A stretch of 64,000 nt of DNA from Acidobacteriota bacterium (GTDB lineage Bacteria; Acidobacteriota; Blastocatellia; Pyrinomonadales; Pyrinomonadaceae): NCBI GenBank assembly GCA_046765655.1, contig JBKPMX010000013.1, positions 1,815 through 65,814 on the forward strand, given 5' to 3'. The first letter of the stretch is position 1, and each line of letters begins with the position of its first letter. The notes under the pieces are model-generated. The model made no database searches, was not told the origin of the DNA, and worked only from the letters and a program-made list of their open reading frames with translations. This document shows positions 6,897 through 57,789 of the stretch, one piece after another. The position numbers and the translations under genes were made by a program.

Positions 6897-7010
6897 GTGG
6901 GAAACAGTCAGTACCGAAACGCGGTAGCGGTGGGTCCGCTCTGTTACCGCCCGTTGAGTGTTAGGTGGCGGATCCGACGCTACCGCGTTTCGGTACTGAC
7001 TGTTTCCCAC
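6897..7010. mobile_element. palindromic MITE/REP-like element, family A copy 1
   Basis: gtgggaaacagtcagtaccgaaacgcggtagcg (6897-6929) and its exact reverse complement cgctaccgcgtttcggtactgactgtttcccac (6978-7010). The same arms recur at 23738 and 54766. Confidence 0.85.
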
Positions 7011-9473: not shown

Positions 9474-9478
9474 AAGAT

Positions 9479-9570
9479 GGCCTTGGGCCTTCGGCCTTAG
9501 GTCTTTGCGCCTTGCGCGCAACAGGTACCAAGGGCGAAGGCCAAAGAGCAAAGGCCAAAGACCAAGGACC
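9479..9570. repeat. stop-to-start spacer hairpin built from complementary heptad tracts
   Basis: Left GGCCTTG GGCCTTC GGCCTTA GGTCTTT GCGCCTT (9479-9514). Right CAAGGGC GAAGGCC AAAGAGC AAAGGCC AAAGACC AAGGACC (9529-9570). The arms are imperfectly complementary. ATG at 9577. Confidence 0.85.
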
Positions 9571-9576
9571 AGTTTT

Positions 9577-14573: not shown

Positions 14574-14620
14574 GCAAAAGGGGAAGAGCAAAGCGCTAAG
14601 AGCAAAGCGCAAAGAGTGCT
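14572..14620 (+). repeat. 7/14-nt periodic tract starting in the stop codon of member 6
   Basis: GAGCAAA AGGGGAA GAGCAAA GCGCTAA GAGCAAA GCGCAAA GAGTGCT. A partial complement cttagcccttcgctcgttgcttc follows at about 14626-14648. Confidence 0.75.
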
Positions 14621-14665
14621 TACCACTTAGCCCTTCGCTCGTTGCTTCAAGATAGGAGAATCGAG

Positions 14666-17167: not shown

Positions 17168-17173
17168 AAGGAG

Positions 17174-17273
17174 TTCGGATTTCGGACTTCGGATATATCG
17201 GATTTTGTCCGGCGCGCAATCGAACTCTTAATCCGCGCCCGCAAAATCTGAAATTCGAATTCCGAAATCCGAA
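17174..17273. repeat. spacer hairpin with TTCGGAT / ATCCGAA heptad arms
   Basis: Left TTCGGAT TTCGGAC TTCGGAT ATATCGG. Inner GC stem ggcgcg..cgcgcc. Right AAATCTG AAATTCG AATTCCG AAATCCG AA. ATG at 17286. Confidence 0.85.
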
Positions 17274-17285
17274 GAGGGAACTGAC

Positions 17286-19718: not shown

Positions 19719-19909
19719 GCCTGCGAAGCAGGCGGACAGCTTAAAGCCTGGGGCGTCAGCCCCAGGAAGGATTGCGGTTCATTCTCGGCAGCCCGTGAAA
19801 CGGGCGACAGAGAATCACAGTTCTTTCGGCTGCTCCGGCTCGGATTTTGAAAACACCACCAACCTGGGTCTGACGCCCCAGGCTTTATGCTCACGCCTGC
19901 TTCGCAGGC
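19719..19909. mobile_element. palindromic MITE-like element, family B copy 1
   Basis: It starts the base after the member 8 stop. Termini gcctgcgaagcaggc...aagcctggggcgtcagccccagg and cctgggtctgacgccccaggctttatgctcacgcctgcttcgcaggc are inverted. Internal hairpin gcccgtgaaacgggc (19791-19805). Alignable end to end with 52059-52255. Confidence 0.85.
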
Positions 19910-19929
19910 TAACAGGAGGGGAAAAAGAA

Positions 19930-21057
19930 ATGAAACTCAGATCAATTCTCACTGTCGTTCTTATTCTGACATTCGCTTCTTTTGCCGCCGGCCAAAAGAC
20001 TGAGGTGAATCAGGACAGATCCACATGGAATTGGGTACAAAGCGACAACAACAAAAAGATCGAAGTGCGCGTCGAGAACAAAGTTGAATTCAACGACGAC
20101 TATTCCGATGTATCAAACATTCCCTCTGACGGTTCGTTGAAGATTATCGACAGTCGTGGCCCACACAGCATTCGATTGCAAGTTACACGCGGCGGCGCCG
20201 GCGAATTAAAGCGCGAATACTCGGTCGATGGCAGAACGCGCGAGTTTGATAATGAAGCTCGCCAATGGTTACGCGGTGTGTTGTTGCAGGCAGCACGCGA
20301 AGGCGGACTGGATGCGCGCAATCGCGTGCAGCGGATTCTGAATAAGCGTGGCGCGCGTGGCCTGGCAGAAGAGTTGACTTACATCAAGGGAGATTACGTC
20401 CGACGCATTTACTTCGAAGCCTTCCTTCAAGCTCCTGGTCTAAACGATGAAGAATTGAAAACGGCGATTCGCAATGCCTCGCAGACAATCGAGAGCGATT
20501 ACGAACGCGCCCAAATGTCACTGCAAGTAGCGCCCATTTTCGTTTCGAAAGATGCCTTGGTCCCTGATTTTTTTGCCTCCCTGGATCGCCTCAGTTCTGA
20601 TTACGAGCGCCGTCGCACGTTGAGCGGCATTCTCAAGAAAGAACAACCGACTAAAAACGCACTCTCAGCGATGGTGCATTCAGCGCGACTGTTGTCGTCG
20701 GATTATGAGAAAGCCGTGTTTCTGATCGAGGCAGCTGATCGATATCAGTCCGATGATGGTTTGCGCGCCGATTGGTTCAATACGTTGAATTCGCTCAGCT
20801 CTGATTACGAGCATCGCCGAGTTCTTTCGAGCCTCTTAAAAGTTCCGAACCTGAATTCAAATGCACTAGTCGATGCGATGCAGTCAGCGTCGCGGATTGG
20901 GTCTGACTATGAGAAGGCCTCGTTCTTGATTGACGCGCTCGATCGATATCAATCCGAACCGCGACTACGCACTGCACTTGTTAATACCGCGAAGACAATC
21001 AACTCGGAATACGAGCGCGGCCGCGTGCAGAAGAGACTGGACCGAGCCGATTACTAA
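19930..21057 (+). CDS. secreted repeat protein of unknown function (SDYE repeats)
   Basis: The ORF opens at 19795 inside a palindromic element. The likely start is ATG 19930, preceded by AGGAGGGG, giving signal peptide MKLRSILTVVLILTFASFAAGQ. The C-terminal half has alternating repeats LSSDYE[RH]RR.LS..LK and SDYEKA.FLI.A.DRYQS. I recognise no family. Confidence 0.6.
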   Translation: MKLRSILTVVLILTFASFAAGQKTEVNQDRSTWNWVQSDNNKKIEVRVENKVEFNDDYSDVSNIPSDGSLKIIDSRGPHSIRLQVTRGGAGELKREYSVDGRTREFDNEARQWLRGVLLQAAREGGLDARNRVQRILNKRGARGLAEELTYIKGDYVRRIYFEAFLQAPGLNDEELKTAIRNASQTIESDYERAQMSLQVAPIFVSKDALVPDFFASLDRLSSDYERRRTLSGILKKEQPTKNALSAMVHSARLLSSDYEKAVFLIEAADRYQSDDGLRADWFNTLNSLSSDYEHRRVLSSLLKVPNLNSNALVDAMQSASRIGSDYEKASFLIDALDRYQSEPRLRTALVNTAKTINSEYERGRVQKRLDRADY

Positions 21058-23667: not shown

Positions 23668-23905
23668 CCAGTTGGTACTTTTGAGCTTTGTTCTTTGAGC
23701 TTTGGTACTTGGCATGTCCACGGTGCAACACAACGTAGTGGGAAACAGTCAGTACCGAAACGCGGTAGCGTCGGGTCTTCGTTCCATTAGAGGCCCTGTA
23801 ATCGGAAGACGACCCGACGCTACCGCGTTTCGGTACTGACTGTTTCCCACTACGTTGAAGCAAAGGACAAAGAACAAGGCCAAAGTCCTAAGGCCAAAGA
23901 CCAGG
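23668..23905. repeat. heptad-arm spacer hairpin enclosing a family A element
   Basis: Left arm GGTACTT TTGAGCT TTGTTCT TTGAGCT TTGGTAC (23668-23712). Right arm CAAAGGA CAAAGAA CAAGGCC AAAGTCC TAAGGCC AAAGACC (23857-23905). Element A copy 2 sits between them. Confidence 0.75.
23738..23850. mobile_element. palindromic MITE/REP-like element, family A copy 2
   Basis: Same 33-nt terminal arms as 6897-7010. The stem extends inward (gtcgggtcttc / gaagacgacccgac). Confidence 0.85.
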
Positions 23906-23918
23906 AGCAGGCAGGCAA

Positions 23919-31343: not shown

Positions 31344-31368
31344 TGATTTCAGGCGCTGGTTGAAAAAG

Positions 31369-31475
31369 AATCATTGGTCATTTGAGATTTGATAATTCAG
31401 ATTTGAGATTTGCCGCTGGCAATGAGAGACGTAAATCTCAAATCTCAAATGTCAAATCTCCAATCACCAATGATT
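31369..31475. repeat. spacer hairpin, family F copy 1 (ATTTGAG / CTCAAAT heptad arms)
   Basis: aatcattggtcatttgagatttgataattcagatttgagatttg ... aaatctcaaatctcaaatgtcaaatctccaatcaccaatgatt. The termini aatcattgg / ccaatgatt are shared with 33996-34152. Confidence 0.85.
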
Positions 31476-36652: not shown

Positions 36653-36654
36653 TT

Positions 36655-36780
36655 GGCCTTACGTCTTTGGTCGTAGGCCTTTGATCGCAGACCGAAGATG
36701 AAGGCCTAAGGATCAAAGACCACAAAGACCAAAGACTAAAGACTAAAAACTAAAGACTAAAGACTAAAGACTAAAGACTA
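36655..36780. repeat. spacer hairpin plus extended TAAAGAC heptad run
   Basis: Left ggccttacgtctttggtcgtaggcctttgatc. Right CAAAGAC ca CAAAGAC CAAAGAC TAAAGAC TAAAAAC TAAAGAC TAAAGAC TAAAGAC TAAAGAC (36714-36778). ATG at 36800. Confidence 0.88.
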
Positions 36781-36799
36781 TTAGCGCTCGAGGTTTGTT

Positions 36800-39250
36800 A
36801 TGTATAGCTTACTAAAAGACATTCAGTTCGCATTCCGTGGTCTGGTCAAGCGACCAGCCTTCGCCATTATCGGCGTTGTTAGTCTCGCGTTGGGCATTGG
36901 CGCCAACACCGCGATCTTCAGTCTTGTTAACACGGTCCTCTTGCGATCATTGCTCGTCGATCGCCCGGAAGAAGTCGTGGCTGTACACCTGCGAGGAAAG
37001 AACGACTCGATGGGCGCTTTCTCTTATCCGAATTACAAAGACATTCGTGATCAGAACGACGTGTTGTCTGGTGTTGTCGCCTATCGCTTCATTCCTTTGA
37101 GCGTTTCGCGTGGTGGTAACAACGAGAGAGTCTGGGGCTATCTCGTTTCCGGCAACTATTTTGATGTACTAGGTGTTCGTCCGGTTAAAGGTCGAACGTT
37201 CCAACCAGAAGAAGATCTAACTCGCAATACACATCCAGTAGCAGTGGTTAGTTACGAGTCGTGGCAAAGGAGATTCGGCGGTGATCCCAATCTCGTCGGC
37301 AGTGATGTTCTCCTCAACAGTCACCAATTCAGAGTTATTGGCATTGCTCCACCGAATTTCAAAGGAACTGAATTCATCTACACGCCCGAGATCTGGGTGC
37401 CTAGTTCGATGGCTCAATGGGCCGAGCCTGGATCGACTTATATCGACAGACGAGATTCCGGTAACTTCTTCCTCGCGGGTCGACTAAAGGCAGGTATTGG
37501 AGCAACTCAAGCTCAAGCCTCACTCAACCTCCTTGTTAACCAACTCGCCGCACAATATCCCGATTCGAATGAGGGCCAGTCGATCAAAATTGGACCAGCG
37601 GGCTTCATCATGCCCGACATCAGAAACGCTGTAGTTAGCTTCACCGCGATCCTGATGGCAGCCGTAATTTTGGTTTTGCTCGTTACGTGCGCCAACATCG
37701 CCGGTCTCATGCTCGCGCGGGCCACCGATCGGCGTCGGGAGATTGCGATTCGCCTCGCTATGGGGGCGAATCGACGTCAACTAGTTCGCCAACTGCTAAC
37801 CGAAAGCATCCTGCTCTCGTGCATTGGAGGTGCGTTGGGATTGCTGTTGGCGATTTGGATGCTCAGGTTGTTGGTTGCGTTCAAGCCCGGTGCTGAATTC
37901 CCGCTGACCCTGGATGTTCCAGTCGATTGGCGAGTGCTTCTGTTCTCAGTCGTGGTATCTGTTGTTACCGGAGCGGTCTTCGGGCTCGCGCCTGCTTTGC
38001 AAGCAACACGTCCAGGTTTGGTAACAGCTTTAAAAGAGAGCGCGGCGCAAGGCGGTGCGCGTCGGAGTCGACTCAGAAGTGTGCTCGTCGTTGTGCAAAT
38101 TGCTTTATCGCTCGTGGTGTTGATCGGCGGCGGTTTGCTTGTTCGCACACTGCAGCGCCTACAGTCAATGAATCCCGGCTTCGATCCCAGCAATGCACTG
38201 ATGATGTCGTTCGACGTGGGATTGCAGGGATACGACCAGGCACGCGGCGAACAGTTTTACCAGCAAGTGTTGGATCGAATGAATGGCCTGCCAGGTATTA
38301 AGTCTGCGGCGATCACGAGTTATGTCCCGCTAACTGTGAACTACAGCAGCAATGGTGTTTACCTCGAAGGCCAACCATCGGAACGCGGGGCCAACGTGCC
38401 GACCGCCATGGTCGGTTCGGTTGGCGCTAATTATTTTCAGACGCTCAGCACTCCGATCGTCGAAGGCCGCGAGTTCACGCCGCACGACACCCAAAAAACC
38501 GACAAGGTAGCAGTCGTTAACCAAACCTTTATTCGGCGATTCATGCCGTTCCTGCAAAACAATCGCGACGCAATTGGCCGGCGGATAAGTTTTAAGAGTG
38601 CGCAAGGTCCCTTTCTGCAGATAATCGGCATTGCTCAGGACGGTAAGTATTTCAACATTGCTGAAGACCCGCGGGCGTTTGTTTGGACACCGCTGCTCCA
38701 GGATTATTCAAACAGTGCGACGCTTGTCGTTCGCACCGATCGCGATCCGTTGTCGATGATCACAGCTGTTCGAAACGAAGTGCAGGCAATCGATCCGAAT
38801 CTGCCGATCTTTGAGGTTAAAACATTCGAAGAACACATGCGCTTCGCCCTGTTTCCGTCCCGGGTTGCGGCATCAGTGTTGGGAATATTTGGAATGATCG
38901 CGTTGCTGCTAGCGGCGATGGGAATCTACGGCATCACGTCGTACGCCGTGGCGCAGCGAACGCACGAAATTGGTATTCGGATGGCGCTGGGCGCTACGGT
39001 CAGAGACGTGTTGAAGCTGATGTTGAGTCACGGCCTGAAGCTGACGGTCATAGGAGTTTGTTTCGGATTGATTGGAGCGTACGTGGTTACTGGAGCAATC
39101 ACGAGTCTGCTCTACGGCGTGAGCGCAACTGATCCCCTGACGTTCGTCTTCGTGTCATTGATGTTGATTGGGGTTGCGCTGCTTGCGTGTTATCTGCCCG
39201 CGCGGCGCGCAACGAGAGTAGATCCGTTGGTGGCGCTCAGGTACGAGTGA
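36800..39250 (+). CDS. ADOP-family duplicated orphan permease (member 15)
   Basis: MYSLLKDIQFAFRGLVKRPAF. REIAIRLAMGANRRQ / [15 protein letters not shown]. Tail [17 protein letters not shown]. Confidence 0.9.
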   Translation: MYSLLKDIQFAFRGLVKRPAFAIIGVVSLALGIGANTAIFSLVNTVLLRSLLVDRPEEVVAVHLRGKNDSMGAFSYPNYKDIRDQNDVLSGVVAYRFIPLSVSRGGNNERVWGYLVSGNYFDVLGVRPVKGRTFQPEEDLTRNTHPVAVVSYESWQRRFGGDPNLVGSDVLLNSHQFRVIGIAPPNFKGTEFIYTPEIWVPSSMAQWAEPGSTYIDRRDSGNFFLAGRLKAGIGATQAQASLNLLVNQLAAQYPDSNEGQSIKIGPAGFIMPDIRNAVVSFTAILMAAVILVLLVTCANIAGLMLARATDRRREIAIRLAMGANRRQLVRQLLTESILLSCIGGALGLLLAIWMLRLLVAFKPGAEFPLTLDVPVDWRVLLFSVVVSVVTGAVFGLAPALQATRPGLVTALKESAAQGGARRSRLRSVLVVVQIALSLVVLIGGGLLVRTLQRLQSMNPGFDPSNALMMSFDVGLQGYDQARGEQFYQQVLDRMNGLPGIKSAAITSYVPLTVNYSSNGVYLEGQPSERGANVPTAMVGSVGANYFQTLSTPIVEGREFTPHDTQKTDKVAVVNQTFIRRFMPFLQNNRDAIGRRISFKSAQGPFLQIIGIAQDGKYFNIAEDPRAFVWTPLLQDYSNSATLVVRTDRDPLSMITAVRNEVQAIDPNLPIFEVKTFEEHMRFALFPSRVAASVLGIFGMIALLLAAMGIYGITSYAVAQRTHEIGIRMALGATVRDVLKLMLSHGLKLTVIGVCFGLIGAYVVTGAITSLLYGVSATDPLTFVFVSLMLIGVALLACYLPARRATRVDPLVALRYE

Positions 39251-39360
39251 AATCATTGTCGATTGTTGATTGCCGATTGCAAACGCCAAGCCCAAAGGGC
39301 AAAGGGCCAGAAGCTCTTGGCTCTTGCCACTTTGCTCTCAAACGGCAATCGGCAAATAAC
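39251..39360. repeat. nested spacer hairpin with heptad arms
   Basis: Outer CATTGTC GATTGTT GATTGCC GATTGC versus gcaatcggcaaataac. Inner caaagggcaaagggccagaagc versus gctcttggctcttgccactttg. ATG at 39376. Confidence 0.78.
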
Positions 39361-39375
39361 TAGAAAGGCCCTGCC

Positions 39376-41835
39376 ATGTACACGCTCCTTCAAGACCTTC
39401 GTTACGGTGTTCGCACTTTAGGCAAAAACCTGGGCGTCACGATCGTTGCAGTTATCACTCTGGCGCTCGGTATTGGTGCGAACACCGCGATCTTCAGCGG
39501 CGTGAGTGCCTTCGTCTTCAGGCCACTGCCGGTGCCACACCCTGAACAGTTAGTGCGACCAATGGAGTTAACTGAGGACCGTGGATTGGCAGACGAGTTC
39601 TCTTATCCCGATTTCGTTGAATATCGAAATCAGGAGTCAGTGTTCTCTGGAATGTTTGCCGAGAACATGGTCCAAGCAGCAATTGGAACCGAAACTGAAA
39701 ACGATGTGATCTGGGGACAGGTGGTGAGCGGCAACTATTTCGATGTACTCCAGGTAACCCCAATGATGGGTCGCGCGTTTTTGCCTGACGAGGACAGCGC
39801 ACCGGGCTCTCATCCAGTTGTTGTCGTGAGTCATAGCCTGTGGCAACGCCGGCTGGGTGCTGATTCGCACATCGTCGGGAAGACTGTCGAACTCAACGGA
39901 AAACCATACAACGTCATTGGCGTTGCGCCGCCGACATTCAAAGGCAGCAAGTTTGCTTTGGCCCTCGACTTCTGGATACCGATGGCCATGGTTGAGGAAC
40001 TGCAACGCAATCCCGGTCTGCTGAAGGACCGCGGTAGTAATTGGATGAACATCGTGGCGCGATTGAAGCCCGGTGTTTCGCTGGACCAGGCGTCGGCAAA
40101 CATGTCGATGATTGCCAAACGTTTGAATCAGACTTATCCAGATGATCGCGCCAGTAGCACCGATGGACTTGTAAAGACGGAACTCGAAGGACGATTTGAA
40201 GAAGCAGCGGCAATGATGAAAACAGGCGCGGCGATCGCGATGTCGATCGTAGGCCTCGTTCTTCTCATCGCGTGTGCGAACGTTGCTAATCTTTTGCTGG
40301 CGCGCGCAGCTGCTCGCAGAAAAGAGATTGGGATACGTCTTGCGCTCGGTGCGAGCCGCGCGCGTTTGATCCGGCAGTTGCTCACAGAAAACATTCTTCT
40401 CTCATTGCTCGGCGGCGGAATGGGTCTGTTGCTCGCTTACTGGCTGACGTATCTGATGCAGGGGTTTATTCCAGTCATTGAATACAACGTTCTCAACGAC
40501 TTCTTCGGCATTGACTCTCGTGTGCTGATATTCACCCTTGTTATTTCACTACTCACCGGAGTGTTGTTTGGTCTTGCGCCCGCATGGCACGCCTCAAAAC
40601 CTGAGCTAGTCCCGGTTCTAAAAGGAGAGATCACTACACAGTCTGGAAAACGACGTCGGCTCACGCTGCGCAACTCTTTAGTGGTCGCGCAAGTAGCGCT
40701 GTCGCTTGTGGTACTCGTATGCGCTGGTTTGTTTGTTCAAAGCTTTCGTTATGCCCAGCGAATGGATCCGGGATTTGGCGCGCAGAACGTACTGCTCATG
40801 ACTATCAATCCGCAGTTAATTGGTTACGACGAAACACAGAATAAAGATTTTTTTGCTCGCACAGTCGAAGGGGTGAAGGCGCTACCAGGGGTAGAAGCTG
40901 CCAGTGTCACCCGATTGGCGCCTCTCGGTGACAGCTCAAACTCGAGTGGACCAATACTGCGAGAGGGAGAAACACTCGCGCGGGGAAGCGCTGGCCGCGT
41001 GATCATGAATACCTCAGTTAGTCCGGGCTACTTTCAAACGATGCAGATACCGATCCTGGAAGGTCGCGACTTTGATGACCGCGATCGGAAAGGATCACAA
41101 CAAACGGTAATCGTGAATGACCGCATGGCTGAAATGATGTGGCCGGGGCAGAGCGCTGTCGGCAAACGAATTCTGGTTGGAACGGACAGTCATGATCCAC
41201 TCGAAGTGGTCGCCGTAGTGAAGACTGGCAAGTATCGATCTTTGAGCGAAGATCCGAAACCGTTTTATTACTACCCAATGCGTCAGCGTAGACCCGCCGG
41301 CATGACGTTACTCGTGCGAACGAGCGGAGATCCGCACGCATTGATTAACGCAGTACGCACGCACATTCAATCACTCGACCGGCGCATGCCTGTCTTTGCA
41401 GTGAAAACTTTGCCCGAACACATGACGTGGGCGCTATGGGCTCCGAGGATGGCAGCGTCGCTATCACTTGCATTCGGATTAGTGGCGTTGTTGTTGAGTG
41501 CTGTTGGACTCTACAGCGTCATGGCCTACGTCGTGTCGCAGCGAACGCGTGAGGTTGGCATTCGGATGGCTCTCGGTGCGCAGCGTCGAGACGTTCTGAG
41601 GTTGATGGCCGCTTATGGAATGAGCTTGGCCTTTATTGGTTTAGCCATTGGGCTCGGCCTGGCATTCGTGTTAGCTCGAGCTCTATCGGCTGTGTTGATT
41701 GGCGTCAGCGTCTATGACCTGACGATATTTTTAGCAGTTCCTGTGTTGCTAACTGTTGTGGCTGCTGCTGCGTGTGTCTTTCCGGCGCGCCGCGCCACAA
41801 AAGTCGATCCGTTGGTAGCCCTCAGGTACGAGTGA
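39376..41835 (+). CDS. ADOP-family duplicated orphan permease (member 16)
   Basis: [35 protein letters not shown] / [15 protein letters not shown]. Tail [17 protein letters not shown]. Confidence 0.9.
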   Translation: MYTLLQDLRYGVRTLGKNLGVTIVAVITLALGIGANTAIFSGVSAFVFRPLPVPHPEQLVRPMELTEDRGLADEFSYPDFVEYRNQESVFSGMFAENMVQAAIGTETENDVIWGQVVSGNYFDVLQVTPMMGRAFLPDEDSAPGSHPVVVVSHSLWQRRLGADSHIVGKTVELNGKPYNVIGVAPPTFKGSKFALALDFWIPMAMVEELQRNPGLLKDRGSNWMNIVARLKPGVSLDQASANMSMIAKRLNQTYPDDRASSTDGLVKTELEGRFEEAAAMMKTGAAIAMSIVGLVLLIACANVANLLLARAAARRKEIGIRLALGASRARLIRQLLTENILLSLLGGGMGLLLAYWLTYLMQGFIPVIEYNVLNDFFGIDSRVLIFTLVISLLTGVLFGLAPAWHASKPELVPVLKGEITTQSGKRRRLTLRNSLVVAQVALSLVVLVCAGLFVQSFRYAQRMDPGFGAQNVLLMTINPQLIGYDETQNKDFFARTVEGVKALPGVEAASVTRLAPLGDSSNSSGPILREGETLARGSAGRVIMNTSVSPGYFQTMQIPILEGRDFDDRDRKGSQQTVIVNDRMAEMMWPGQSAVGKRILVGTDSHDPLEVVAVVKTGKYRSLSEDPKPFYYYPMRQRRPAGMTLLVRTSGDPHALINAVRTHIQSLDRRMPVFAVKTLPEHMTWALWAPRMAASLSLAFGLVALLLSAVGLYSVMAYVVSQRTREVGIRMALGAQRRDVLRLMAAYGMSLAFIGLAIGLGLAFVLARALSAVLIGVSVYDLTIFLAVPVLLTVVAAAACVFPARRATKVDPLVALRYE

Positions 41836-41840
41836 GCGAG

Positions 41841-41938
41841 CTAAGAGCTAAGAGCTAAGAGCTAAGAGCTAAGAGCTAAGAGCTAAGAGCTAAGAGCGAA
41901 GAGCGAAGAGCCAAGAGCCAAGAGCCAAGAGCCAAGAG
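41841..41938 (+). repeat. perfect 14-unit heptanucleotide array (CTAAGAG)8(CGAAGAG)2(CCAAGAG)4
   Basis: Counted base by base: eight CTAAGAG units from 41841, two CGAAGAG units from 41897, four CCAAGAG units from 41911, with no interruption. It begins 5 nt after the member 16 stop and ends 61 nt before ATG 42000. It is followed by the closing stem aagagc-gatgt-gctctt. Confidence 0.95.
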
Positions 41939-41999
41939 CGATGTGCTCTTACCACTTTGCCCTTTGCCGCATCGATCTAGCTTACGCGGAGGTCTATTC

Positions 42000-44408
42000 A
42001 TGCAAACACTGATTCAGGACATTCGATACGCTGTTCGGAGCTTATTGAAGCGGCCAGGCTTCGTCGTCATCGCCATTACTACGCTCGCACTTGGTATTGG
42101 CGCTACTACCGCAATCTTCACCGTCGTGAATTCGGTGCTGCTTCGCCCTCTGTCCTTTCCTCAATCAGAGGCGATTGTCGCATTTGACGGTATTAATCCC
42201 GGCAAGGGCTTTACTGAGGGCCCCATGTCCGTACCCGACTTCGCCGATTGGAGAAATCAAAGCCAGTCGTTCGAGCAGATGGCGGCCTTCGTTCCTATTG
42301 GTGCAATTCTGGCTAGCAACGATGGGCCCGAACGTGTCCATACAACACTGGTGACAACTGATTTCTTTCCGTTGTTACGCACTGCGCCATTCAGGGGACG
42401 CGCGTTTCAACCGGACGATTACCGGAAGGGCACTGAATTTGTCGCTATGGTGAGTTACGGGCTGTGGCAACGTCGGTTTGCTGGCAGCGAAAGCCTGGTT
42501 GGTCAGAAAGTGCTGTTGGATTCCTGGCCCTTCACTATTATCGGTGTGATGCCTCGTGGTTTCGATTATCCGGAACAGTCAGAGATTTGGCTTCCATACG
42601 CTCCGAATCCAGCGAAGCAGCCGCGCGATAACCGTTTCATAAATGTCATCGGTCGTCTGAAATCCGGAGTAACGATTCAACAGGCTCAAGTGGAAATGAC
42701 CCTGCTGAATGAACGTTTGGCCCAAAGTTACACCGAGACGAATTATGGTCAGAACGTTAAGCTCTCAACTCTTCAAGATAAGCTGGTTGGAAATTTGCGC
42801 ACTGCGCTGCTTGTTTTGTTGGGCGCCGTAGTTTTTGTGCTGCTCATCGCGTGCGCGAATGTAGCAAACCTCCAGCTCTCGCGGGCGACTTACAGAGAAC
42901 GTGAGATAGCAGTACGCACAGCTCTCGGCGCAAGCCGACTGAGAATTATTCGACAGCTATTGACCGAGAGTGTGCTCCTGGCGATTGTCAGCGGCATTGC
43001 AGGTATTGGTCTGAGTGTTTGGCTAACCAAACTACTAATTGCCATTAGCCCGCCAAATAGTCCTCGATTTGAAGAGATTGCTATCGATGCCCGGGTGTTT
43101 GTCTTTGCTCTTGCACTCGCTGTGATCACCGGTGTCGTTTTTGGTCTCGCTCCTGCACTTAAAGCGTCGCGAACAGATATCAACGAAACTCTGAAGGACG
43201 TTGGTCGCGCTGGATTGCACGGTCGTCGTAACCGAATCGGTGGCTGGTTAATGATCTCGGAGATCGCACTCTCGTTTATGTTGCTCGTTGGTGCAGGGTT
43301 ATTGATTAAGAGCTTCGTCCGGCTGTTAGACGTGAAACCCGGATTTGAACCTGCAAACACACTAACGATGCGTTTACAGCTTCCATCGGGAAAATACATA
43401 GACGCTAAGGAAAACCAACAGATCTACCGACAGATTGTCGAGCGCGTTGGCGCGTTGCCAGGAGTTGCATCAGCGGGTGCGATTCTGAGTCTCCCACTTC
43501 GCGGCAGCGAATTTAATCTCGGGCGAGGTTATGTTCTTGAGGGGCGGCCACTGACACCTGAAGAATCAGGCAGTGCATTCTATCTAGCCATCACGCCGGG
43601 GTACTTTCAAACTGCCGGAATTCCACTAAAGAGCGGTCGCATCTTTGACGATCACGACACGAGTGACACACCGATGGTCGCAGTCATCAATGAGACGATG
43701 GCTCGTAAATTGTGGCCTGGAGAGAACCCTATCGGTCGAAAGTTCATCTTCTGGCGTGACGAAAAGTTTTCTCGCGAAATAGTAGGTGTGGTAGGCGACA
43801 CACGTGTCTCACTTGATACTCAAGCAGAGGACCAGGTGTATGTTCCTGACGCGCAGAGCGGGTCGTGGAGCAATACTTCGCTGGTAGTTAAGACCAACTC
43901 AGAACCGACGGCTCTTGCATCCGCCATACGTAACGAAATCCTCGCGACCGATCGCGGCATTGCCATCTACAACGTCAAGACGCTGGAAGATCTGGTTATC
44001 ACTTCCGCGGCACCGCGCAAGACACCGATGCTGTTGCTGGCCTCGTTCGCTGGCGCCGCGATGATGCTGGCGATGCTCGGAATTTATGGTGTCACTGCTT
44101 ACTACGTAACGCAGCACACACATGAAATCGGTTTGCGGATGGCACTGGGCGCACAAGTGAAGGACGTGCTGAAGCTTGTACTCAGACGCGGAATTCTGCT
44201 TGCCCTTGTTGGTATCGGCATCGGAGTAGTAGCTGCCTTGGGTCTTACTCGGTATTTGTCGACGCTATTGTTCGAAGTGCGGCCGATAGATGTGCCGACG
44301 TTCTTAATTGTTGCGGGGGTATTGATCTTGGTCGCACTGCTTGCCTGCGTGATACCCGCGCGACGTGCGGCGAAAGTCGATCCACTCGTGGCGCTCCGGT
44401 ACGAGTAG
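42000..44408 (+). CDS. ADOP-family duplicated orphan permease (member 17)
   Basis: Consensus start [21 protein letters not shown] at ATG 42000 with GGAGG upstream (ORF-track start 41943 is a non-conserved extension). [15 protein letters not shown] / HEIGLRMALGAQVKD. Tail [17 protein letters not shown]. Confidence 0.88.
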   Translation: MQTLIQDIRYAVRSLLKRPGFVVIAITTLALGIGATTAIFTVVNSVLLRPLSFPQSEAIVAFDGINPGKGFTEGPMSVPDFADWRNQSQSFEQMAAFVPIGAILASNDGPERVHTTLVTTDFFPLLRTAPFRGRAFQPDDYRKGTEFVAMVSYGLWQRRFAGSESLVGQKVLLDSWPFTIIGVMPRGFDYPEQSEIWLPYAPNPAKQPRDNRFINVIGRLKSGVTIQQAQVEMTLLNERLAQSYTETNYGQNVKLSTLQDKLVGNLRTALLVLLGAVVFVLLIACANVANLQLSRATYREREIAVRTALGASRLRIIRQLLTESVLLAIVSGIAGIGLSVWLTKLLIAISPPNSPRFEEIAIDARVFVFALALAVITGVVFGLAPALKASRTDINETLKDVGRAGLHGRRNRIGGWLMISEIALSFMLLVGAGLLIKSFVRLLDVKPGFEPANTLTMRLQLPSGKYIDAKENQQIYRQIVERVGALPGVASAGAILSLPLRGSEFNLGRGYVLEGRPLTPEESGSAFYLAITPGYFQTAGIPLKSGRIFDDHDTSDTPMVAVINETMARKLWPGENPIGRKFIFWRDEKFSREIVGVVGDTRVSLDTQAEDQVYVPDAQSGSWSNTSLVVKTNSEPTALASAIRNEILATDRGIAIYNVKTLEDLVITSAAPRKTPMLLLASFAGAAMMLAMLGIYGVTAYYVTQHTHEIGLRMALGAQVKDVLKLVLRRGILLALVGIGIGVVAALGLTRYLSTLLFEVRPIDVPTFLIVAGVLILVALLACVIPARRAAKVDPLVALRYE

Positions 44409-44447
44409 AAATGAAGACCGTAAGCAAAACGTAGATTGGAGACTGTC

Positions 44448-46886
44448 ATGCAATCGCTTCTTCAAGACATACGCTACGGAGTTCGAAGCCTGAGCAAGCG
44501 GCCGAGTTTCGTTGTGATTGCCGTAATCACGCTCGGTCTCGGAATAGGCGCCAACACCGCGATCTTCAGCGTCGTGAATGCAGTTCTGCTCAAGCCGTTG
44601 CCGTTCAACGATCCGGAACGGATCGTGATGCTTTGGGGCGTTCTGCCGCAGTACGCAGGAGCGAGTCTTCCCGCATCGGCCGGCAACTATCTTGACTTCG
44701 CTAAAGAGAGCAAGTCGTTCGAACATGTCTCGGCGTTCCGTCAATGGTCCTGGCAACTCACTGGCGGCCTTGAGCCTGAACAACTGCAAGGCGCTCGAGT
44801 GTCAGCCAGTTTCTTTGACACTATCGGAGCGAGTCCGATGCTGGGCCGGCCCTTCACCGCTGAGGAAGACAAGCCAAACGGTACACGAGTAGCAGTCATA
44901 AGTTACGGATTGTGGCAACGACACTTTGGTTTAGACCAGAACATTGTTGGCCGCTCCATCACCTTGTCGGGCCAAACTGTGACCATCGTTGGTGTGATGC
45001 CACCGGGATTTCGTTTTCCTGGCGGGGCGAATCTGATTCCAGGTTTACAGTTTGCCTTTCAAAACGATATTTGGGTTCCGTTGGCTTTAACAGATGATGA
45101 GATTTCTCGACAGGGAAATCTCAATCTTGCGCTCGCAGGTCGATTAAGAGCTGGCGTATCGATAGCACAGGCCAAGCTCGAAACAGATTCGATTCAAAGC
45201 GGTTTACCTTTAGGAAAGATTGGTTACACGTTCAATCTCGTACCGCTCTATCAGCAGATGGCAGGCGGGGTAAGAAGGCTGATGCTGGTGTTGTTTGCGA
45301 CTGTGGCATTCGTTCTTCTGATTGCCTGCGCTAATGTCGCCAATCTGTTACTAACACGAGCGACTTCACGGCAGCGTGAGGTGGCAATTCGTGTTGCTCT
45401 CGGTGCGGGACGGCTCCGTGTCGTGAGGCAACTCCTAACCGAGAGTGTGCTGCTTTCATTGTTGGGTGGAACAGTGGGAATCATTCTCGCTTCCTGGGGA
45501 ATAAGTTTTCTTGTTTCGTTGATTCCAAGAGACGTTCCGCGCATTCAGGACGTGGGGATCGACGTTCGCATTCTCACGTTTGGCCTCGCAATTTCCTTTA
45601 TCACTGGAATCGTCTTTGGTTTGGTCCCCGCGCTACAAAGTTCCAAAGTTGATTTACAGGAGTCGCTGAAAGAAGGTTCGCGAGGAGTTTCTTCTGGAAC
45701 TCGACAAAACAGAATTCGCAGTGTTCTGGTCATATCAGAAGTAAGCCTTGCTGTCGTTCTTCTTATCGGTGCGACACTTCTTACTCGAAGCTTCATTCAA
45801 CTGCTCGATAGGAATCCCGGATTGGACACCTCGCATGTACTGAAGCTCGAAGTAGCGTTACCCAACGTTCCACCTTCTCGTTATGCGAATACGTCGGAAC
45901 AGGTGTCGTTCTTTCGTCAGTTGATTGATCGAATCGTTACTGTTCCAGGAGTCGAGTCGGCCGCCGGCGTCGTGACATTGCCACTTACTGGCGGGTTTGA
46001 AAGTACCGAAGTGATCATCGATGGACGTGAATCATCGGCGGGTAACCGACCTGAGGCGAATTACAACACCATTACTCCGGGATTCTTCAAGGTGTTCAGA
46101 ATTCCACTTTTGAAGGGTAGGGATTTCACGGCGCAAGACAATGCCGATTCCGCGCGCGTACTGATCGTCAATGATGTTTTCGCCCAGCGTTTATGGCCAA
46201 ACGAGGAGGCCATTGGAAAACAACTTCGCGTTGGTTTCGAAAAAGAACCTCGAGAGATCGTTGGTGTGGTTGGCGGCTCCAGACGGGCGGATTTGACCTC
46301 CGAACCGCGACCGGAGATGTATCTGCCGCATTCACAGTTTTCAAATGGAACTCTGATACTCCTAGTCAGAACTCAAGGCGATCCTCTCGCAATGGCGCCG
46401 GTGATTCGGGAGCACGTCCGACTGCAAGACCAGGACATTCCAGTGTCACGAATCGGCACCATGGATCAGGTATTGGCTACTTCTGTCGCTCAGCAGCGAT
46501 TCACGATGTTGTTAATGGGATTGTTTGCCGCGTTGGCCCTGGTTCTCGCACTCGTAGGAATCTATGCGGTGATGGCCTATCTGGTGACACAACGATCGCA
46601 TGAGATCGGAATCCGACTGGCGCTCGGTGCGACTGGATCTGACGTTCTGCAGCTAGTGTTGAAAACGGGTATGACGTTAACGCTGGTAGGTGTCGGAATT
46701 GGATTGGCCGTTGCGTGGGGTTTGACACGTTTCATGTCGAGCTTGCTGTTTGGCGTCACTACAACGGATGCGCTGACTTTCGCCGCCGTACCTCTGCTAC
46801 TTCTGATCGTGTCGTTGGTTGCCTGTTACGTCCCTGCGCGCCGTGCGACAAAAGTGGATCCGCTTGTGGCGCTTCGATATGAATAA
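44448..46886 (+). CDS. ADOP-family duplicated orphan permease (member 18)
   Basis: [21 protein letters not shown] at ATG 44448 (TTG 44436 is the alternative). [15 protein letters not shown] / [15 protein letters not shown]. Tail [17 protein letters not shown]. Confidence 0.88.
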
Positions 46887-46892
46887 AACGAA

Positions 46893-46997
46893 CATTTGCC
46901 ATTTGTCGTTTGCCATTCTTCATTTGCCATTTACACGCCGCGTCGCGTTGTTTTCTAAGTGGCAAATGAAAAATGGCAAATGACATACGGCAAATGG
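46893..46997. repeat. spacer hairpin with CATTTGC / GGCAAAT heptad arms
   Basis: Left CATTTGC CATTTGT CGTTTGC CATTCTT CATTTGC CATTTA. Right GTGGCAA ATGAAAA ATGGCAA ATGACAT ACGGCAA ATGG. Confidence 0.85.
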
Positions 46998-47085
46998 CTT
47001 GGTCTTTTCCAGCACAAGTCGGTTACGGGCGGTGTTTACCCGTTAGACAGTCGTAATCCAAATTTCCAACAGCTCAGGGTGCATC

Positions 47086-52058: not shown

Positions 52059-52255
52059 GCCTGCGAAGCAGGCGGGAGCATAAAGCCTGGGGCGTGAGCC
52101 CCAGGAAAACTGCGCCTCATTCTCACGAGCCCGTGAAACGGGCGGCAGCGGAAAATCTATCGATCTTTCGCCCGCTCCGCGGGCTCGGCATTCAAAAACG
52201 GTAGACTCCCTGGGGCTGACGCCCCAGGCTTTATGCTCACGCCTGCTTCGCAGGC
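52059..52255. mobile_element. palindromic MITE-like element, family B copy 2
   Basis: Same termini as 19719-19909. The right-hand ~41 nt ctgacgccccaggctttatgctcacgcctgcttcgcaggct are identical in both copies. Internal hairpin gcccgtgaaacgggc at 52129-52143. Confidence 0.85.
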
Positions 52256-54765: not shown

Positions 54766-54881
54766 GTGATCAAACAGTCAACACCGAAACGCGGTAGCGT
54801 CGCGTCTCCGTTACCACCAGATCGCGCGAGAAAGTAACGAAGACCCGACGCTACCGCGTTTCGGTACTGACTGTTTGCCAC
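54766..54881. mobile_element. palindromic MITE/REP-like element, family A copy 3 (degenerate left arm)
   Basis: The right arm cgctaccgcgtttcggtactgactgtttgccac has one mismatch to copies 1 and 2. Left arm gtgatcaaacagtcaacaccgaaacgcggtagcg. It lies between the last ADOP gene and the response regulator. Confidence 0.8.
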
Positions 54882-54910: not shown

Positions 54911-56287
54911 ATGCCTCGTATCCTTGTTGCAGATGATCAAGCTGATGTTCTGGCGGCGCTGCGACTGCTGCTCAAAGGTGAAGGGTTCAATATTGAAACC
55001 GTATCCTCTCCGGCAGCGGTCCTCAAAGCCATTGACTCACGCGATCTGGATGTCGCTCTCCTGGATCTCAATTACGCGCGCGACACCACTTCCGGCAGCG
55101 AAGGCCTCGACCTGATCACGCGCATTAGAGACAAAGATCCCGCGTTGCCGATAATAGTAATGACTGCTTGGGGCAGCGTTGATCTAGCGGTCGAAGCAAT
55201 GCGTCGTGGCGCACGTGACTTTATTCAGAAGCCCTGGGATAACCAACGGCTGTTGACAGTCTTGCGCACCCAGCTCGAGCTATCGAAGGCGCTTCGTCGA
55301 GGTGAACAACTCGAAGCTGAAAACCTTGCGCTGCGCGACAGCGCCGACGGCGGCAACGGAAAAGCCATCCGTTTGATCGCCGAATCGCCGGCGATGAAAT
55401 CCGTCATGAACCTGGTAACGCGCATTGGACCAGCCGATGCAAACGTTCTGATCACCGGTGAGCATGGCACTGGCAAGGAAGTGATTGCGCGCACGCTCCA
55501 CAGCCTGTCGCAAAGAGCTAGTAAACCGATGGTCTCGGTGAATGCAGGCGCGCTTGCTGAAGGAGTTTTTGAGAGCGAGTTGTTTGGCCACGTGCGCGGC
55601 GCATTCACCGACGCGCGCGCCGATCGTGTTGGTCGCTTCGAATTGGCTGATCGCGGAACATTGTTTCTTGATGAGATTGCGAACGTACCTCCGAATCTTC
55701 AGGCAAAGCTCCTGCGTGTATTGGAGACCGGTGAGTTTGAGCGCGTCGGATCTTCAAAGACGCATCGCGTGAATACGCGCGTGTTGTCTGCAACCAATGC
55801 TGATCTTTCGCAGAAAGCGGAGGCGGGGGAGTTCAGGCAAGACTTGTTGTTCCGTCTGAACACCGTAGAAATTCATTTGCCGCCTTTGCGCGAACGACCG
55901 GAAGACATCCGGTCACTTGCCGAACATTTTCTACAGCAACATTCCGGTCGTTACCATCACTCCTTACAAGGCTTCACCACCGAAGCGTTGGACGCGATGA
56001 TGCGATATTCCTGGCCCGGCAATGTGCGCGAGCTTGATCACGTGATTGAACGCGCAGTGCTAATGTCGACGAGTGCTGTAGTGACGGCTTTCGATCTGGC
56101 CCTGCAATCGGGACGCGAGCCAGGTGTGTCGGCGAAGATTGATGAAATGAGTTTGGAGGAAGTCGAACGACTGCTGATCAGCAAAGCGCTGGCGCGATTT
56201 AGTGGCAATGCGAATCGCGCTGCGGAGGCGCTCGGTCTCAGTCGTAGTGCACTGTACCGAAGACTCCAGAAGTATGGCCTGTCCTAA
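54911..56287 (+). CDS. sigma-54-dependent response regulator (NtrC family: REC + AAA+ + Fis-type HTH)
   Basis: REC domain MPRILVADDQ...ALLDLNY...IIVMTAWG. Walker A GEHGTGKE. ESELFGH and GAFTDA (variant of the GAFTGA sigma-54 contact loop). C-terminal HTH NRAAEALGLSRSALYRRLQKYGL. Confidence 0.9.
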   Translation: MPRILVADDQADVLAALRLLLKGEGFNIETVSSPAAVLKAIDSRDLDVALLDLNYARDTTSGSEGLDLITRIRDKDPALPIIVMTAWGSVDLAVEAMRRGARDFIQKPWDNQRLLTVLRTQLELSKALRRGEQLEAENLALRDSADGGNGKAIRLIAESPAMKSVMNLVTRIGPADANVLITGEHGTGKEVIARTLHSLSQRASKPMVSVNAGALAEGVFESELFGHVRGAFTDARADRVGRFELADRGTLFLDEIANVPPNLQAKLLRVLETGEFERVGSSKTHRVNTRVLSATNADLSQKAEAGEFRQDLLFRLNTVEIHLPPLRERPEDIRSLAEHFLQQHSGRYHHSLQGFTTEALDAMMRYSWPGNVRELDHVIERAVLMSTSAVVTAFDLALQSGREPGVSAKIDEMSLEEVERLLISKALARFSGNANRAAEALGLSRSALYRRLQKYGLS

Positions 56288-56296
56288 CCACACTCT

Positions 56297-56383
56297 GACA
56301 GGATACCAGGATTACAAGATGACTCGAAAATTGCGAGAGTTCTAGTTCGTCATCATGTAATCGTGCAATCCTGTAATCCTGTC
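56297..56383. repeat. imperfect long hairpin in the regulator-kinase spacer
   Basis: gacaggataccaggattacaagatgac versus gtcatcatgtaatcgtgcaatcctgtaatcctgtc. The arms contain short tandem words (aatcctgt aatcctgt). Confidence 0.7.
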
Positions 56384-56403
56384 AAGTTAGATAGAATGGC
56401 TTC

Positions 56404-57789
56404 GTGAGTACCCCGCAGAAAAAAGCTACGACAACTTTCCATTCTCTCGATCCGTCGTTTCGTCGCCCGGAACGTATAAAGTTCGAGCGTCGAGTTACGC
56501 TGCTGGCTCTGGCTGCGGGGTTTCCGCCGGTTGCACTGTCGGCGCTGCTCTTGTGGCTCAACGGTTATTCCGCGCAGATTCAGTGGACCGTCGATCTACT
56601 GCTCGCACTGCTTTGGCTTGGCGTTTCCTTCAATCTCAAACAACGCGTCGTCCGACCCTTACAAACACTCTCGAACATACTGGCGGCGATCAGAGAAGGC
56701 GACTATTCGATCCGCGGCCGGCGCGCGATTTCAGGCGACGCATTGGGCGAAGTCATGCTCGAGGTCAACGACCTTGGTCAAACATTACGCGAGCAACGTA
56801 TCGGCGCCATGGAAGCGACAGCGCTGCTCCGAACCGTGATGTCGGAGATCGACGTTGCAGTCTTTGCTTTTGATGGAGAACAGCGACTCCGTTTGGTTAA
56901 TCGCGCGGGTGAAAGGCTATTGGCCCAGCCCGCAGCGCGACTGCTTGGACGTACGAGTGCTGAGTTGGGACTCCTCGCTTGTTTCAGCCGGCCCGAAGGA
57001 CCGGGCCCGTACACGATGCAGTTGGTTTTTCCGGGTGGAGTGGGGAAGTGGGATATCCGGCGCAGCACATTTCGAGAAGGTGGCGTGCAGCATCACCTGC
57101 TTGTGCTGACGGATTTGAGTCAGACCCTACGCGAAGAAGAGCGAACCGCATGGCAGCGCCTGCTTCGTGTGCTGGGACATGAGCTAAACAATTCACTTGC
57201 TCCCATAAAATCGGTCGCAGGAAGTCTCGGCGATTTGTTAGGCCGAACTCCGCCACCTGCGGATTGGCGCGACGACATGCAGCGCGGTTTAGAAGTGATC
57301 TCCTCCAGGGCCGATTCACTCGCGCGATTTGTCGAATCGTATTCGAAACTCGCGCGTTTGCCGCAACCCCGTTTCGAGCCGCTGAACATCGGCGCACTTG
57401 TATCGCGCGTGGCCACTCTGGAAACGAGATTGCCGGTCAATGTTGTTGCCGGACCCGAAGTATCAGTTCAGGGAGACGATGCGCAACTTGAACAATTGCT
57501 GATCAATCTTGTTCGCAATGCAGTCGACGCATCGCTCGAAACGCACGGCGGCGTAGAGATGGGTTGGCGACAACGGAATGGGCATGTTGAAGTTTGGATA
57601 GACGACGAAGGGCCAGGTCTCGCCAATACTACGAACCTGTTCGTTCCGTTCTTCACGACAAAGGCGGGCGGCTCTGGAATCGGTTTGGTGTTGTCGCGTC
57701 AAATCGCCGAAGCACACGGTGGTACGTTGACTCTCGAGAATCGATCGAGAGTTCGCGGATGTGAAGCACGACTGCGGTTGCCGTTGTAA
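56404..57789 (+). CDS. membrane sensor histidine kinase (2 TM, HAMP, PAS-like, HisKA, HATPase_c)
   Basis: GTG start. TM segments VTLLALAAGFPPVALSALLLWL and VDLLLALLWLGVSF. HAMP-like RPLQTLSNILAAIREGDYSIR. H-box LGHELNNSLAPI, N-box LINLVRNAVDA, G-boxes DDEGPG and GGSGIGL. Confidence 0.88.
   Translation: MSTPQKKATTTFHSLDPSFRRPERIKFERRVTLLALAAGFPPVALSALLLWLNGYSAQIQWTVDLLLALLWLGVSFNLKQRVVRPLQTLSNILAAIREGDYSIRGRRAISGDALGEVMLEVNDLGQTLREQRIGAMEATALLRTVMSEIDVAVFAFDGEQRLRLVNRAGERLLAQPAARLLGRTSAELGLLACFSRPEGPGPYTMQLVFPGGVGKWDIRRSTFREGGVQHHLLVLTDLSQTLREEERTAWQRLLRVLGHELNNSLAPIKSVAGSLGDLLGRTPPPADWRDDMQRGLEVISSRADSLARFVESYSKLARLPQPRFEPLNIGALVSRVATLETRLPVNVVAGPEVSVQGDDAQLEQLLINLVRNAVDASLETHGGVEMGWRQRNGHVEVWIDDEGPGLANTTNLFVPFFTTKAGGSGIGLVLSRQIAEAHGGTLTLENRSRVRGCEARLRLPL

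Follow-up and report, generated by a model that had tools for sequence, protein, structure and literature searches.

A hypervariable heptanucleotide array between two ADOP permease genes of an acidobacterium, probably one arm of an intercistronic hairpin

About 21 co-oriented genes for ADOP permeases lie on a 64,000-nt stretch of contig JBKPMX010000013.1, from an Acidobacteriota bacterium of the family Pyrinomonadaceae (assembly GCA_046765655.1). We refer to this entire stretch as the window, and coordinates are window positions unless a contig is named. Genes were assigned with the NCBIfam model TIGR03434, "ADOP family duplicated permease", at its cut-off of 622 bits. Two of these genes are separated by an array of 14 uninterrupted 7-nt units, (CTAAGAG)8(CGAAGAG)2(CCAAGAG)4, which spans 98 nt at 41841-41938 and had been singled out in an earlier note made from the sequence letters. 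A second reading of the sequence confirmed in every detail the composition, the length, and the two distances given there: 5 nt separate the upstream stop codon from the array, and 61 nt separate its end from the downstream ATG at 42000. The two genes and the gap between them, which we call the target gap, are laid out as follows.

39376 to 41835, plus strand: upstream ADOP permease gene, 819 aa, full-length match to TIGR03434 at 943 bits; its stop codon is the TGA at 41833-41835.
41836 to 41840, plus strand: GCGAG, a degenerate partial unit between stop codon and array; together with the stop codon, the predicted base of the hairpin.
41841 to 41896, plus strand: (CTAAGAG)8, the longest perfect tract, 56 nt, with AGCU cores predicted to self-pair.
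41897 to 41910, plus strand: (CGAAGAG)2 variant block, found in the window allele only.
41911 to 41938, plus strand: (CCAAGAG)4 variant block; CCAAGAG units are present in the L007, L010, and L012 alleles as well.
41939 to 41944, plus strand: CGATGT, loop or spacer between the arms, kept in seven of eight alleles.
41945 to 41968, plus strand: 3' arm GCTCTTA CCACTTT GCCCTTT GCC, made of three inverted heptamers that complement units of the AAGAG type.
41971 to 41981, plus strand: the 11-nt segment ATCGATCTAGC, missing from the L010 and L012 alleles.
41985 to 41999, plus strand: conserved translation-initiation region CGCGGAGGTCTATTC, outside the hairpin and retained even where the remaining leader is replaced, with the ribosome-binding site (RBS) GGAGG at 41988-41992.
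42000 to 44408, plus strand: downstream ADOP permease gene, 802 aa, full-length match to TIGR03434 at 970 bits.

Tandem Repeats Finder (TRF) calls the array at 41838-41939 with a period of 7, 14.6 copies, 97% matches, and a score of 162; among 30 shuffles of the window that preserve its composition, our control for repeats throughout, the top score is 62. The array is thus a long simple sequence repeat in the usual sense, with head-to-tail units of 5-11 nt that run longer than composition predicts. As is expected when the unit is not a multiple of 3, it is non-coding, lying between the stop that ends at 41835 and the ATG at 42000. The CTAAGAG part contains stop codons in all three plus-strand frames, as the earlier note had argued, and in all three minus-strand frames too.

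Relatives of the locus were gathered through database relatives of the downstream gene and by a DNA scan of metagenome contigs; the relatives' contigs used for comparison carry L-numbers (L001, L003, L006-L016). Lookups for exact copies of both flanking window proteins and of protein P0125 returned no match. Eight independent assemblies of the target locus were obtained, all from metagenomes or metagenome-assembled genomes (MAGs), and they differ as follows.

Window allele, 14 units: (CTAAGAG)8(CGAAGAG)2(CCAAGAG)4.
L006 (JGI 3300015373), 5 units: (CTAAGAG)4 CCAAGGG.
L007, L008, and L011 (three other JGI samples), 3 units each: CTAAAAG CTAAGAG CCAAGAG.
L012 (metagenome contig), 11 units: CTAAGAG and CCAAGAG mixed.
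L010 (ENA), 16 units: mixed units with a duplicated 21-nt block and one 6-nt unit.
L013 (ENA), 10 units: ten perfect CTAAGAG preceded by three degenerate units.

The series thus runs 3, 3, 3, 5, 10, 11, 14, and 16 units. The alleles differ in 7-nt steps between conserved flanks, and the tract behaves as a slippage hotspot, which bears out the suggestion in the earlier note that the array is a substrate for slipped-strand mispairing; the comparison of related strains and MAGs that it had called for did turn up length variation. Four contigs that are ∼99.7% identical over 12.4 kb differ by ∼36 single-nucleotide polymorphisms (SNPs) and two 1-nt indels, and their sole multi-base indel is a 14-nt difference in the target array, within whose 35 nt two of the ∼36 SNPs also fall. 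The shorter, imperfect arrays of the same 12.4 kb keep a constant length. The target tract is a real mutational hotspot, with variation seen between samples and populations and not within one clone. The order of the unit blocks varies by allele, and the 21-nt duplication in L010 is of higher order; the block structure fits repeated expansion after point mutation, as had been proposed.

Since every sequence is a metagenome or MAG assembly, and the contigs L008 and L011 and that of P0247, the nearest ortholog of the upstream gene, end near gaps, one might ask whether the repeat number or the array itself comes from short-read misassembly. We find this hardly credible. Eight independent assemblies, from separate projects, all yielded the array between identical flanks, typical reads and k-mers are longer than both the short alleles (21-35 nt) and the 56-nt perfect tract, and the variant units serve as internal landmarks.

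The earlier note had treated the array as a feature peculiar to the leader of the downstream gene, its "member 17". That view is not supported: nearly every gap of the cluster holds heptamer arrays and, in L013, the array follows the ortholog of the upstream gene. TRF finds 23 period-7 arrays in the window, of which the target is the longest (shuffle mean 1.0, maximum 4), and 19 of the 23 fall within the ∼8% of the window that is non-coding. In pooled intergenic DNA, sequence identity at lags of 7, 14, and 21 nt is 0.38, 0.35, and 0.31, against ∼0.25 in coding DNA, and the lag-7 value is 0.365 when the target gap is left out. The gaps share a recurring plan: a stop codon is followed by a heptamer arm, a center that is sometimes filled by a long perfect palindrome, a reverse-complement arm that stops shortly before the next RBS, and the RBS itself. 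Nearly all gaps longer than 40 nt fold as a single hairpin spanning most of the gap (z = -2.4 to -17), and the target is such a gap hairpin, in which a 14-unit 5' arm faces a 3-unit 3' arm.

The two arms of a gap match each other far better than they match those of other gaps. For 20 arm pairs, mean complementarity is 0.54 within the own gap versus 0.21 to other gaps (p = 1.4e-10). The unit sequence varies from gap to gap (GATTGCC, GGATTTC, CAGGATT, GAATGAT, TATCAGC, and 9-mers in L001), so that the element is not a conserved multicopy one of the REP, REPIN, or MITE (miniature inverted-repeat transposable element) kind. By these comparisons, pairing between the arms is conserved and unit sequence is not, which counts against an array of sites for a sequence-specific DNA- or RNA-binding protein, such as an ADOP regulator or a factor of the S1, Csp, or CsrA type. 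Such a binding array could account for the CAAAG/CAAAT/CNAAG-like core that most window units share, and for the many arrays that end near start codons; the hypothesis has a precedent in the TAACTGA repeats of the Beggiatoaceae (PMC4679880). The shared core can be explained by common descent of duplicated gene-plus-gap units, units differ widely between gaps and lineages, and arm complementarity is what persists. We regard the binding-site explanation as very improbable.

Other gaps of the cluster that illustrate the plan are listed here, the arm pairs as read in the gap.

9474 to 9575: arm pair GGCCTTG/CAAGGCC.
14574 to 14641, plus strand: sister element, a small hairpin oriented like the target and built of AAGAGCA/AAGCGC units with the arm GTGCTTACCACTTAGCCCTTCGC; z = -4.1.
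17168 to 17285: arm pair GGATTTC/GAAATCC.
31344 to 31473: arm pair ATTTGAG/CTCAAAT.
36653 to 36799, plus strand: sister element with an overgrown 3' arm (AAAGACT x8 at 36724-36780), the mirror case of the target; length-polymorphic.
39251 to 39375, plus strand: sister element of nested hairpins, with outer arms GATTGCC/GGCAATC and inner arms CAAAGGG.../GCTCTTGGCTCTTGCCACTTTGC, the latter paralogous to the target 3' arm.
46887 to 47085: arm pair CATTTGC/GCAAATG.

The paralogs of the target 3' arm lie at 39313-39342 and 14617-14641 (gaps 39290-39342 and 14574-14641). The centers of several gap hairpins hold members of a near-perfect palindrome family with the arm GTGGGAAACAGTCAGTACCGAAACGCGGTAGCG (6897-7010, 23738-23850, and 54849-54881), which is REPIN- or MITE-like; at 23668-23918, a palindrome of this type sits nested within heptamer arms. 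Two further palindrome families combine GCCTGCGAAGCAGGCGG with AAAGCCTGGGGCGTGAGCCCCAGG and CCCCGGGCTTTAGCCCGGGG with GAAACCGTTTCAACGGTTTC (window 19719-19909, 52059-52255, and 4245-4393; L006 11800-12058). The gaps also carry a practical warning, as their hairpins break assemblies and make gene callers overextend N-termini. Arrays of (CAAAGAC)n and similar stop-free units let the longest-open-reading-frame rule or gene callers extend ADOP N-termini into the repeats, with TTG or GTG "starts" within arrays at, for example, window 4397, 9505, 11949, 26376, and 31474 and L006 12000-14543; the same ADOP gene is called as 847 aa or as 822 aa owing to repeat read-through. A 420-aa open reading frame (ORF) at 19795-21057, with no Pfam or NCBIfam match, breaks the ADOP array; its predicted N-terminus overlaps a palindrome, and the true start is probably further downstream.

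The hairpin design recurs beyond the window. The closest reference-genome relative, the Acidobacteriota MAG L001, has an ortholog of the downstream gene that is 92% identical and is without a heptamer array. Its ADOP gaps contain 9-nt ATAGGACCT repeats instead (2325-2362, 4851-4869, 7343-7384, and 9854-9880), which overlap the TAG stop codon, and one of them is followed by a U7 run and looks terminator-like. In L003, a Blastocatellia MAG contig whose ADOP protein is 43% identical, the same design stands between ADOP genes and also beside non-ADOP genes, next to a Clp-type AAA+ ATPase near an M50 peptidase; it is found in L013 and L009 too. At L003 1960-2045, a (GAATGAT)n array starts inside the TGA stop codon of the upstream ADOP gene, a hint that the conserved gene end ...TACGA(A/G)TGA can seed arrays. 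In the window, a sigma-54-dependent response regulator and a histidine kinase follow directly after the last ADOP gene (54911-57789), and the gap between these two (56288-56403) has inverted arms with a period of 7-8. On this gap and the non-ADOP examples in L003, we rejected an ADOP-specific reading, though the window signal concentrates in ADOP gaps. Contigs with ADOP genes from Gemmatimonadaceae and Solibacteraceae showed no similar design. We hold with moderate confidence that the design is a lineage feature, especially dense in ADOP arrays.

The relatives also reveal which gene the array travels with. In all eight assemblies, it stays at the 3' end of the upstream gene. In L013, it lies 3' of the upstream-gene ortholog and the next gene is a different paralog of 801 aa; the ortholog of the downstream gene comes after this paralog, behind a (GATTGCC)n...(CAATCGG)n hairpin with z = -10.2. 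The downstream-gene ortholog has other leaders in L013, L014, L001, and L009, so the array is not tied to it as an hmw-type array would be, and only ∼15-25 nt around the RBS (CGCGGAGGTCTAT) remain with it. In the L013 arrangement, the tie of the array to the 3' end of the upstream gene is no weaker than its tie to the downstream gene. Judged by gene order, the array behaves less like a downstream leader than like a part of the upstream gene's 3' flank, or else like a gap module in its own right.

Synteny between relatives breaks exactly at the gaps, and close relatives differ in gene content, with the breakpoints there. A 1.39-kb ORF (451 aa) is inserted in four JGI contigs; one ADOP gene is absent from L010 and L012, and L013 has an extra ADOP gene of 801 aa. 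A 259-bp composite of heptamer arms and palindromes of the two further families is present in L006, L007, and L010 and absent at window 49548. The differences in ORFs and ADOP genes map to window 44432 and 44436-46886, L006 5270-6625, and L013 1142-3547. A transposase identity for the 451-aa ORF was rejected, its only similarity being sub-threshold to amidohydrolases, and no relation to the 420-aa orphan ORF was found. Whole gaps are exchanged as well. For the second-longest array (36653-36799), L015, a contig with a 98% ortholog, has a gap of 81 nt versus 147 nt in the window, lacks the (TAAAGAC)6 run, and has two arms that are both shorter; in L016 (95% ortholog), the whole corresponding gap is swapped for another heptamer-armed hairpin.

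These observations bear on the view that the element acts at the DNA level, its arms extruding as hairpins or cruciforms in replication and serving as break and recombination hotspots that shuffle ADOP cassettes, with arm complementarity kept by template-switch (quasipalindrome) correction and not by selection. The coincidence of the synteny breaks with gaps (the 1.39-kb ORF, the 259-bp composite hairpin, the ADOP loss in L010/L012 and gain in L013), the exchange of whole gaps between 95-98% orthologs, and the joint difference of both arms in L015 are all in its favor, as are the arm mismatches, which carry no RNA-strand bias (16 G.T versus 12 A.C, p = 0.57). Breakpoints in gaps are also expected from selection against disrupted genes, no target-site duplications or recombinase genes were seen, the inserted 451-aa ORF is not a transposase, and the coordinated arm change comes from one comparison. 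A primarily DNA-level role therefore strikes us as quite unlikely.

We next consider how the target gap is predicted to fold. In the shorter-allele folds, the 3' arm pairs with the stop-proximal units and the surplus units loop out. As in an hmw-type arrangement, the repeat is one arm of a hairpin with a downstream complement, and the 3' arm is predicted to pair with three units in every allele; the significance is modest (z = -1.8 to -3.55), and the arm spans 3 units, not 10. The 3-unit allele of L007 is a symmetric 3+3 hairpin in the model, and we take this as the base state. In a synthetic series of unit numbers, pairing to the 3' arm saturates at ∼3 units, surplus CUAAGAG units self-pair via their AGCU cores, and the RBS keeps a predicted accessibility of 0.27-0.38 between 6 and 24 units, with no length-dependent change. 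Nothing in the sequence, as far as these folding models go, predicts a graded response to unit number.

The gap offers no sign of its own transcription signals. A scan of 39000-44600 for sigma-70 promoters found none in the target gap and overall counts at or below the shuffle level, and a scan of the same region for intrinsic terminators found none in 41836-41999, again with overall counts at or below the shuffle level. The target 3' arm is followed by GCCGCAUCG, and the gap does not qualify as an intrinsic terminator, a G+C-rich stem-loop with a U-tract directly after it; the sister elements in L001 (U7) and L013 (U4) are more terminator-like. Rfam gave no match in the whole window at the gathering threshold. 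The 5 nt between upstream stop and array mean that any promoter upstream of the array would lie inside the upstream gene, and the 11-nt indel in L010 and L012 (41971-41981) leaves little room for a conserved promoter between hairpin and RBS. The simplest reading would be that the gap is cotranscribed with the upstream gene. Two further patterns were tried as markers of transcription units and dropped: a promoter-like module, GGCGGTGTTTAC, noticed in three leaders, has one exact copy in the window and shows no enrichment, and the sigma-54 -24/-12 pattern occurs at chance level and is not enriched in the cluster. A conserved module GGCAYAAGTCGG...CGGTGTTTAC...GTTGAGTA in some ADOP leaders (window 47000-47050, L001 9885-9935, and L013 1030-1080) may be a promoter or operator; the window holds it in exact form just once, and the target gap lacks it.

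It is at this point that the contingency (volume-knob) function suggested in the earlier note has to be weighed. As in the hmw genes, the array would form part of a transcribed leader hairpin, processed for example by RNase III, with unit number setting the output of the downstream paralog and the population holding a spread of permease repertoires as a consequence. The 7-nt unit, the placement of the array as a 5' arm with its complement just upstream of the RBS, as in hmw (PMC12721329), and the high polymorphism in 7-nt steps all speak for such a rheostat. So does the gene family, which is huge, paralogous, membrane-located, and different in gene content between strains, and an insensitivity to length in silico has been reported for hmw as well. 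The tract is hypermutable, as a contingency locus should be, and it lies outside any ORF; no promoter could be placed upstream of, inside, or after it, and predicted RBS access is flat. It sits 5 nt past the previous stop, in L013 it accompanies the upstream gene although another paralog lies downstream, 3-unit alleles exist where hmw never falls below 11, and similar arrays occupy nearly all gaps, non-ADOP ones included. The case is made from assembled sequence, and we consider this function possible but unlikely.

Starting from the observed anatomy, class, hypervariability, and linkage to the upstream gene, we favor, with a probability of roughly 0.6, the reading that the array is the slippage-prone, overgrown 5' arm of a generic intercistronic hairpin with simple-sequence arms. 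The stem-loop would begin at the stop codon of the upstream ADOP gene and end shortly ahead of the downstream RBS, with the 3-unit arm at 41945-41968 as partner, and would belong to an intergenic class common in a Blastocatellia-type acidobacterial lineage, in which both arms are built of tandem 7-nt units; the unit sequence changes from gap to gap, and the two arms of one gap stay complementary. Simple-sequence arms of this kind would gain and lose units by slipped-strand mispairing, and the long perfect tract as a local hotspot would give the 3-16 units of related populations. The gap is probably transcribed within a multi-gene or 3'-untranslated-region (3'-UTR) transcript, where the hairpin, as RNA, may influence processing or stability or insulate paralogs from each other. 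The one-sided overgrowth would mostly be a byproduct that is tolerated, since surplus units can loop out, and would not be a dedicated switch; it may still have a quantitative side effect on the genes next to it.

Several observations weigh against this reading. The window allele's own hairpin is weak, with z = -1.0 to -2.5 against shuffles. Because this allele alone folds at z = -1.0, the hairpin claim draws on the class and on the other alleles, which fold better (L006 z = -3.55, L012 z = -2.47, L007 z = -1.8). No compensatory changes were seen among alleles of the target locus, and the comparison of single mismatches given above, made on Watson-Crick-only folds of 30 gaps, lends no weight to action at the RNA level. 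Tolerance of 3-16 units is no proof of neutrality, as hmw folds are also insensitive to length while hmw expression is not. The unit counts come from short-read metagenome assemblies and are perhaps slightly off for the longest alleles. Lastly, the lineage-wide spread is inferred from few non-ADOP examples, and lag-7 identity in the window is ∼0.40 in ADOP gaps versus 0.27 in non-ADOP spacers, a set that probably includes small genes.

In a bolder view, the stop-to-RBS hairpins with simple-sequence-repeat (SSR) arms might be tunable insulators between tandem paralogs in Blastocatellia-type Acidobacteria, with slippage in either arm altering the processing, read-through, or stability of multi-gene transcripts and arm complementarity restored by hairpin-templated repair. 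We offer this as a long shot; if true, a population would have a constantly reshuffled expression pattern across dozens of ADOP permeases, and a free-living soil bacterium would have a contingency system. Repeat-driven hypervariation has been much studied in host-adapted pathogens and hardly in soil bacteria, and the locus described here provides natural heptamer variation from 3 to 16 units in an uncultured acidobacterium, inside a 21-gene permease array. Intergenic hairpins whose complementary arms are tandem repeats that turn over much faster than genes are apparently a wider, undescribed design. If the hairpins affect expression, they would offer a simple way, open to test, into the management of large paralog families by Acidobacteria; otherwise, they clearly illustrate, from nature, what slippage and hairpin formation do to the DNA between bacterial genes.

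Among known systems, the best-studied parallel is hmw1A/hmw2A of nontypeable Haemophilus influenzae, where (ATCTTTC)n in the transcribed 5'-UTR forms the left arm of a long hairpin that is cleaved by RNase III (PMC12721329). There, the promoter and an inverse relation of length to expression have been shown experimentally, natural alleles never have fewer than 11 units, and folding predictions are constant with repeat number although expression depends on it (PMC12721329). The target resembles hmw in its non-coding 7-nt unit, its polymorphic copy number, and its position ahead of a gene whose product is an envelope protein with paralogs; at either locus, the SSR is the left hairpin arm, the right arm stands just before the coding sequence, and extra units barely alter the predicted fold. 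Unlike hmw, the target has no identifiable promoter, starts 5 nt past the preceding stop, follows the upstream gene, and has alleles of down to 3 units; its right arm is itself made of inverted units, and it is one of many similar loci in a free-living soil lineage.

Intergenic heptamer repeats are known from several other groups, the cyanobacterial STRR (short tandemly repeated repetitive) sequences among them. Heptamers are over-represented among longer-unit SSRs according to Mrazek (2007), as cited in PMC4679880. The closest known kind, and a precedent for the reading we favor, is the genome-wide heptamer SSRs GGGAATC of Xanthomonas and GGGGAYT of Nostoc, whose mean distance is 28 nt to the upstream ORF and 160 nt to the downstream ORF (PMC4692102). 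Their flanking genes mostly share one orientation, most of the arrays are transcribed, their length differs greatly among close relatives, and inverted copies can form stem-loops; the authors saw no regulatory role and judged phase variation unlikely (PMC4692102). Our period-7 arrays are likewise strongly enriched in non-coding DNA, near the 3' end of the upstream ORF and between co-oriented genes, with length and sequence that differ widely between close relatives and inverted copies predicted to form stem-loops. The Xanthomonas and Nostoc genomes have one dominant G-rich motif, potentially quadruplex-forming, for which four is the preferred copy number, whereas here many unrelated, A/T-richer units occur in another phylum, typically in paired inverted arms that take up the whole space between stop codon and RBS.

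The TAACTGA direct repeats of marine Beggiatoaceae and of some Cyanobacteria and Bacteroidetes are abundant in intergenic regions (PMC4679880) and share with ours the 7-nt unit in direct intergenic repeats, many just before start codons, with long arrays in some genomes. They use one unit genome-wide, are almost never inverted (1 indirect set in 170), and are rarely followed by a canonical RBS (PMC4679880), whereas here many different units occur, as a rule paired as inverted arms, and a strong GGAGG RBS comes after.

REP (repetitive extragenic palindromic) and BIME (bacterial interspersed mosaic element) sequences have roles in mRNA stability. Like these and the REPINs (PMC3116915), the gap elements are intergenic hairpins between co-oriented genes, present at many loci, fast-evolving, and places where insertions and rearrangements occur. 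The conserved sequence of REP families is spread by a RAYT transposase, in contrast to the locally evolving tandem repeats with gap-specific sequence described here; the REPIN-like perfect palindromes of the window are separate elements nested inside heptamer arms. A search of the available literature library found no paper on such repeats in Acidobacteriota, and to our knowledge they have not been described there. The case is that of a known kind, the intergenic heptamer SSR, met in a new lineage and built as a two-arm hairpin.

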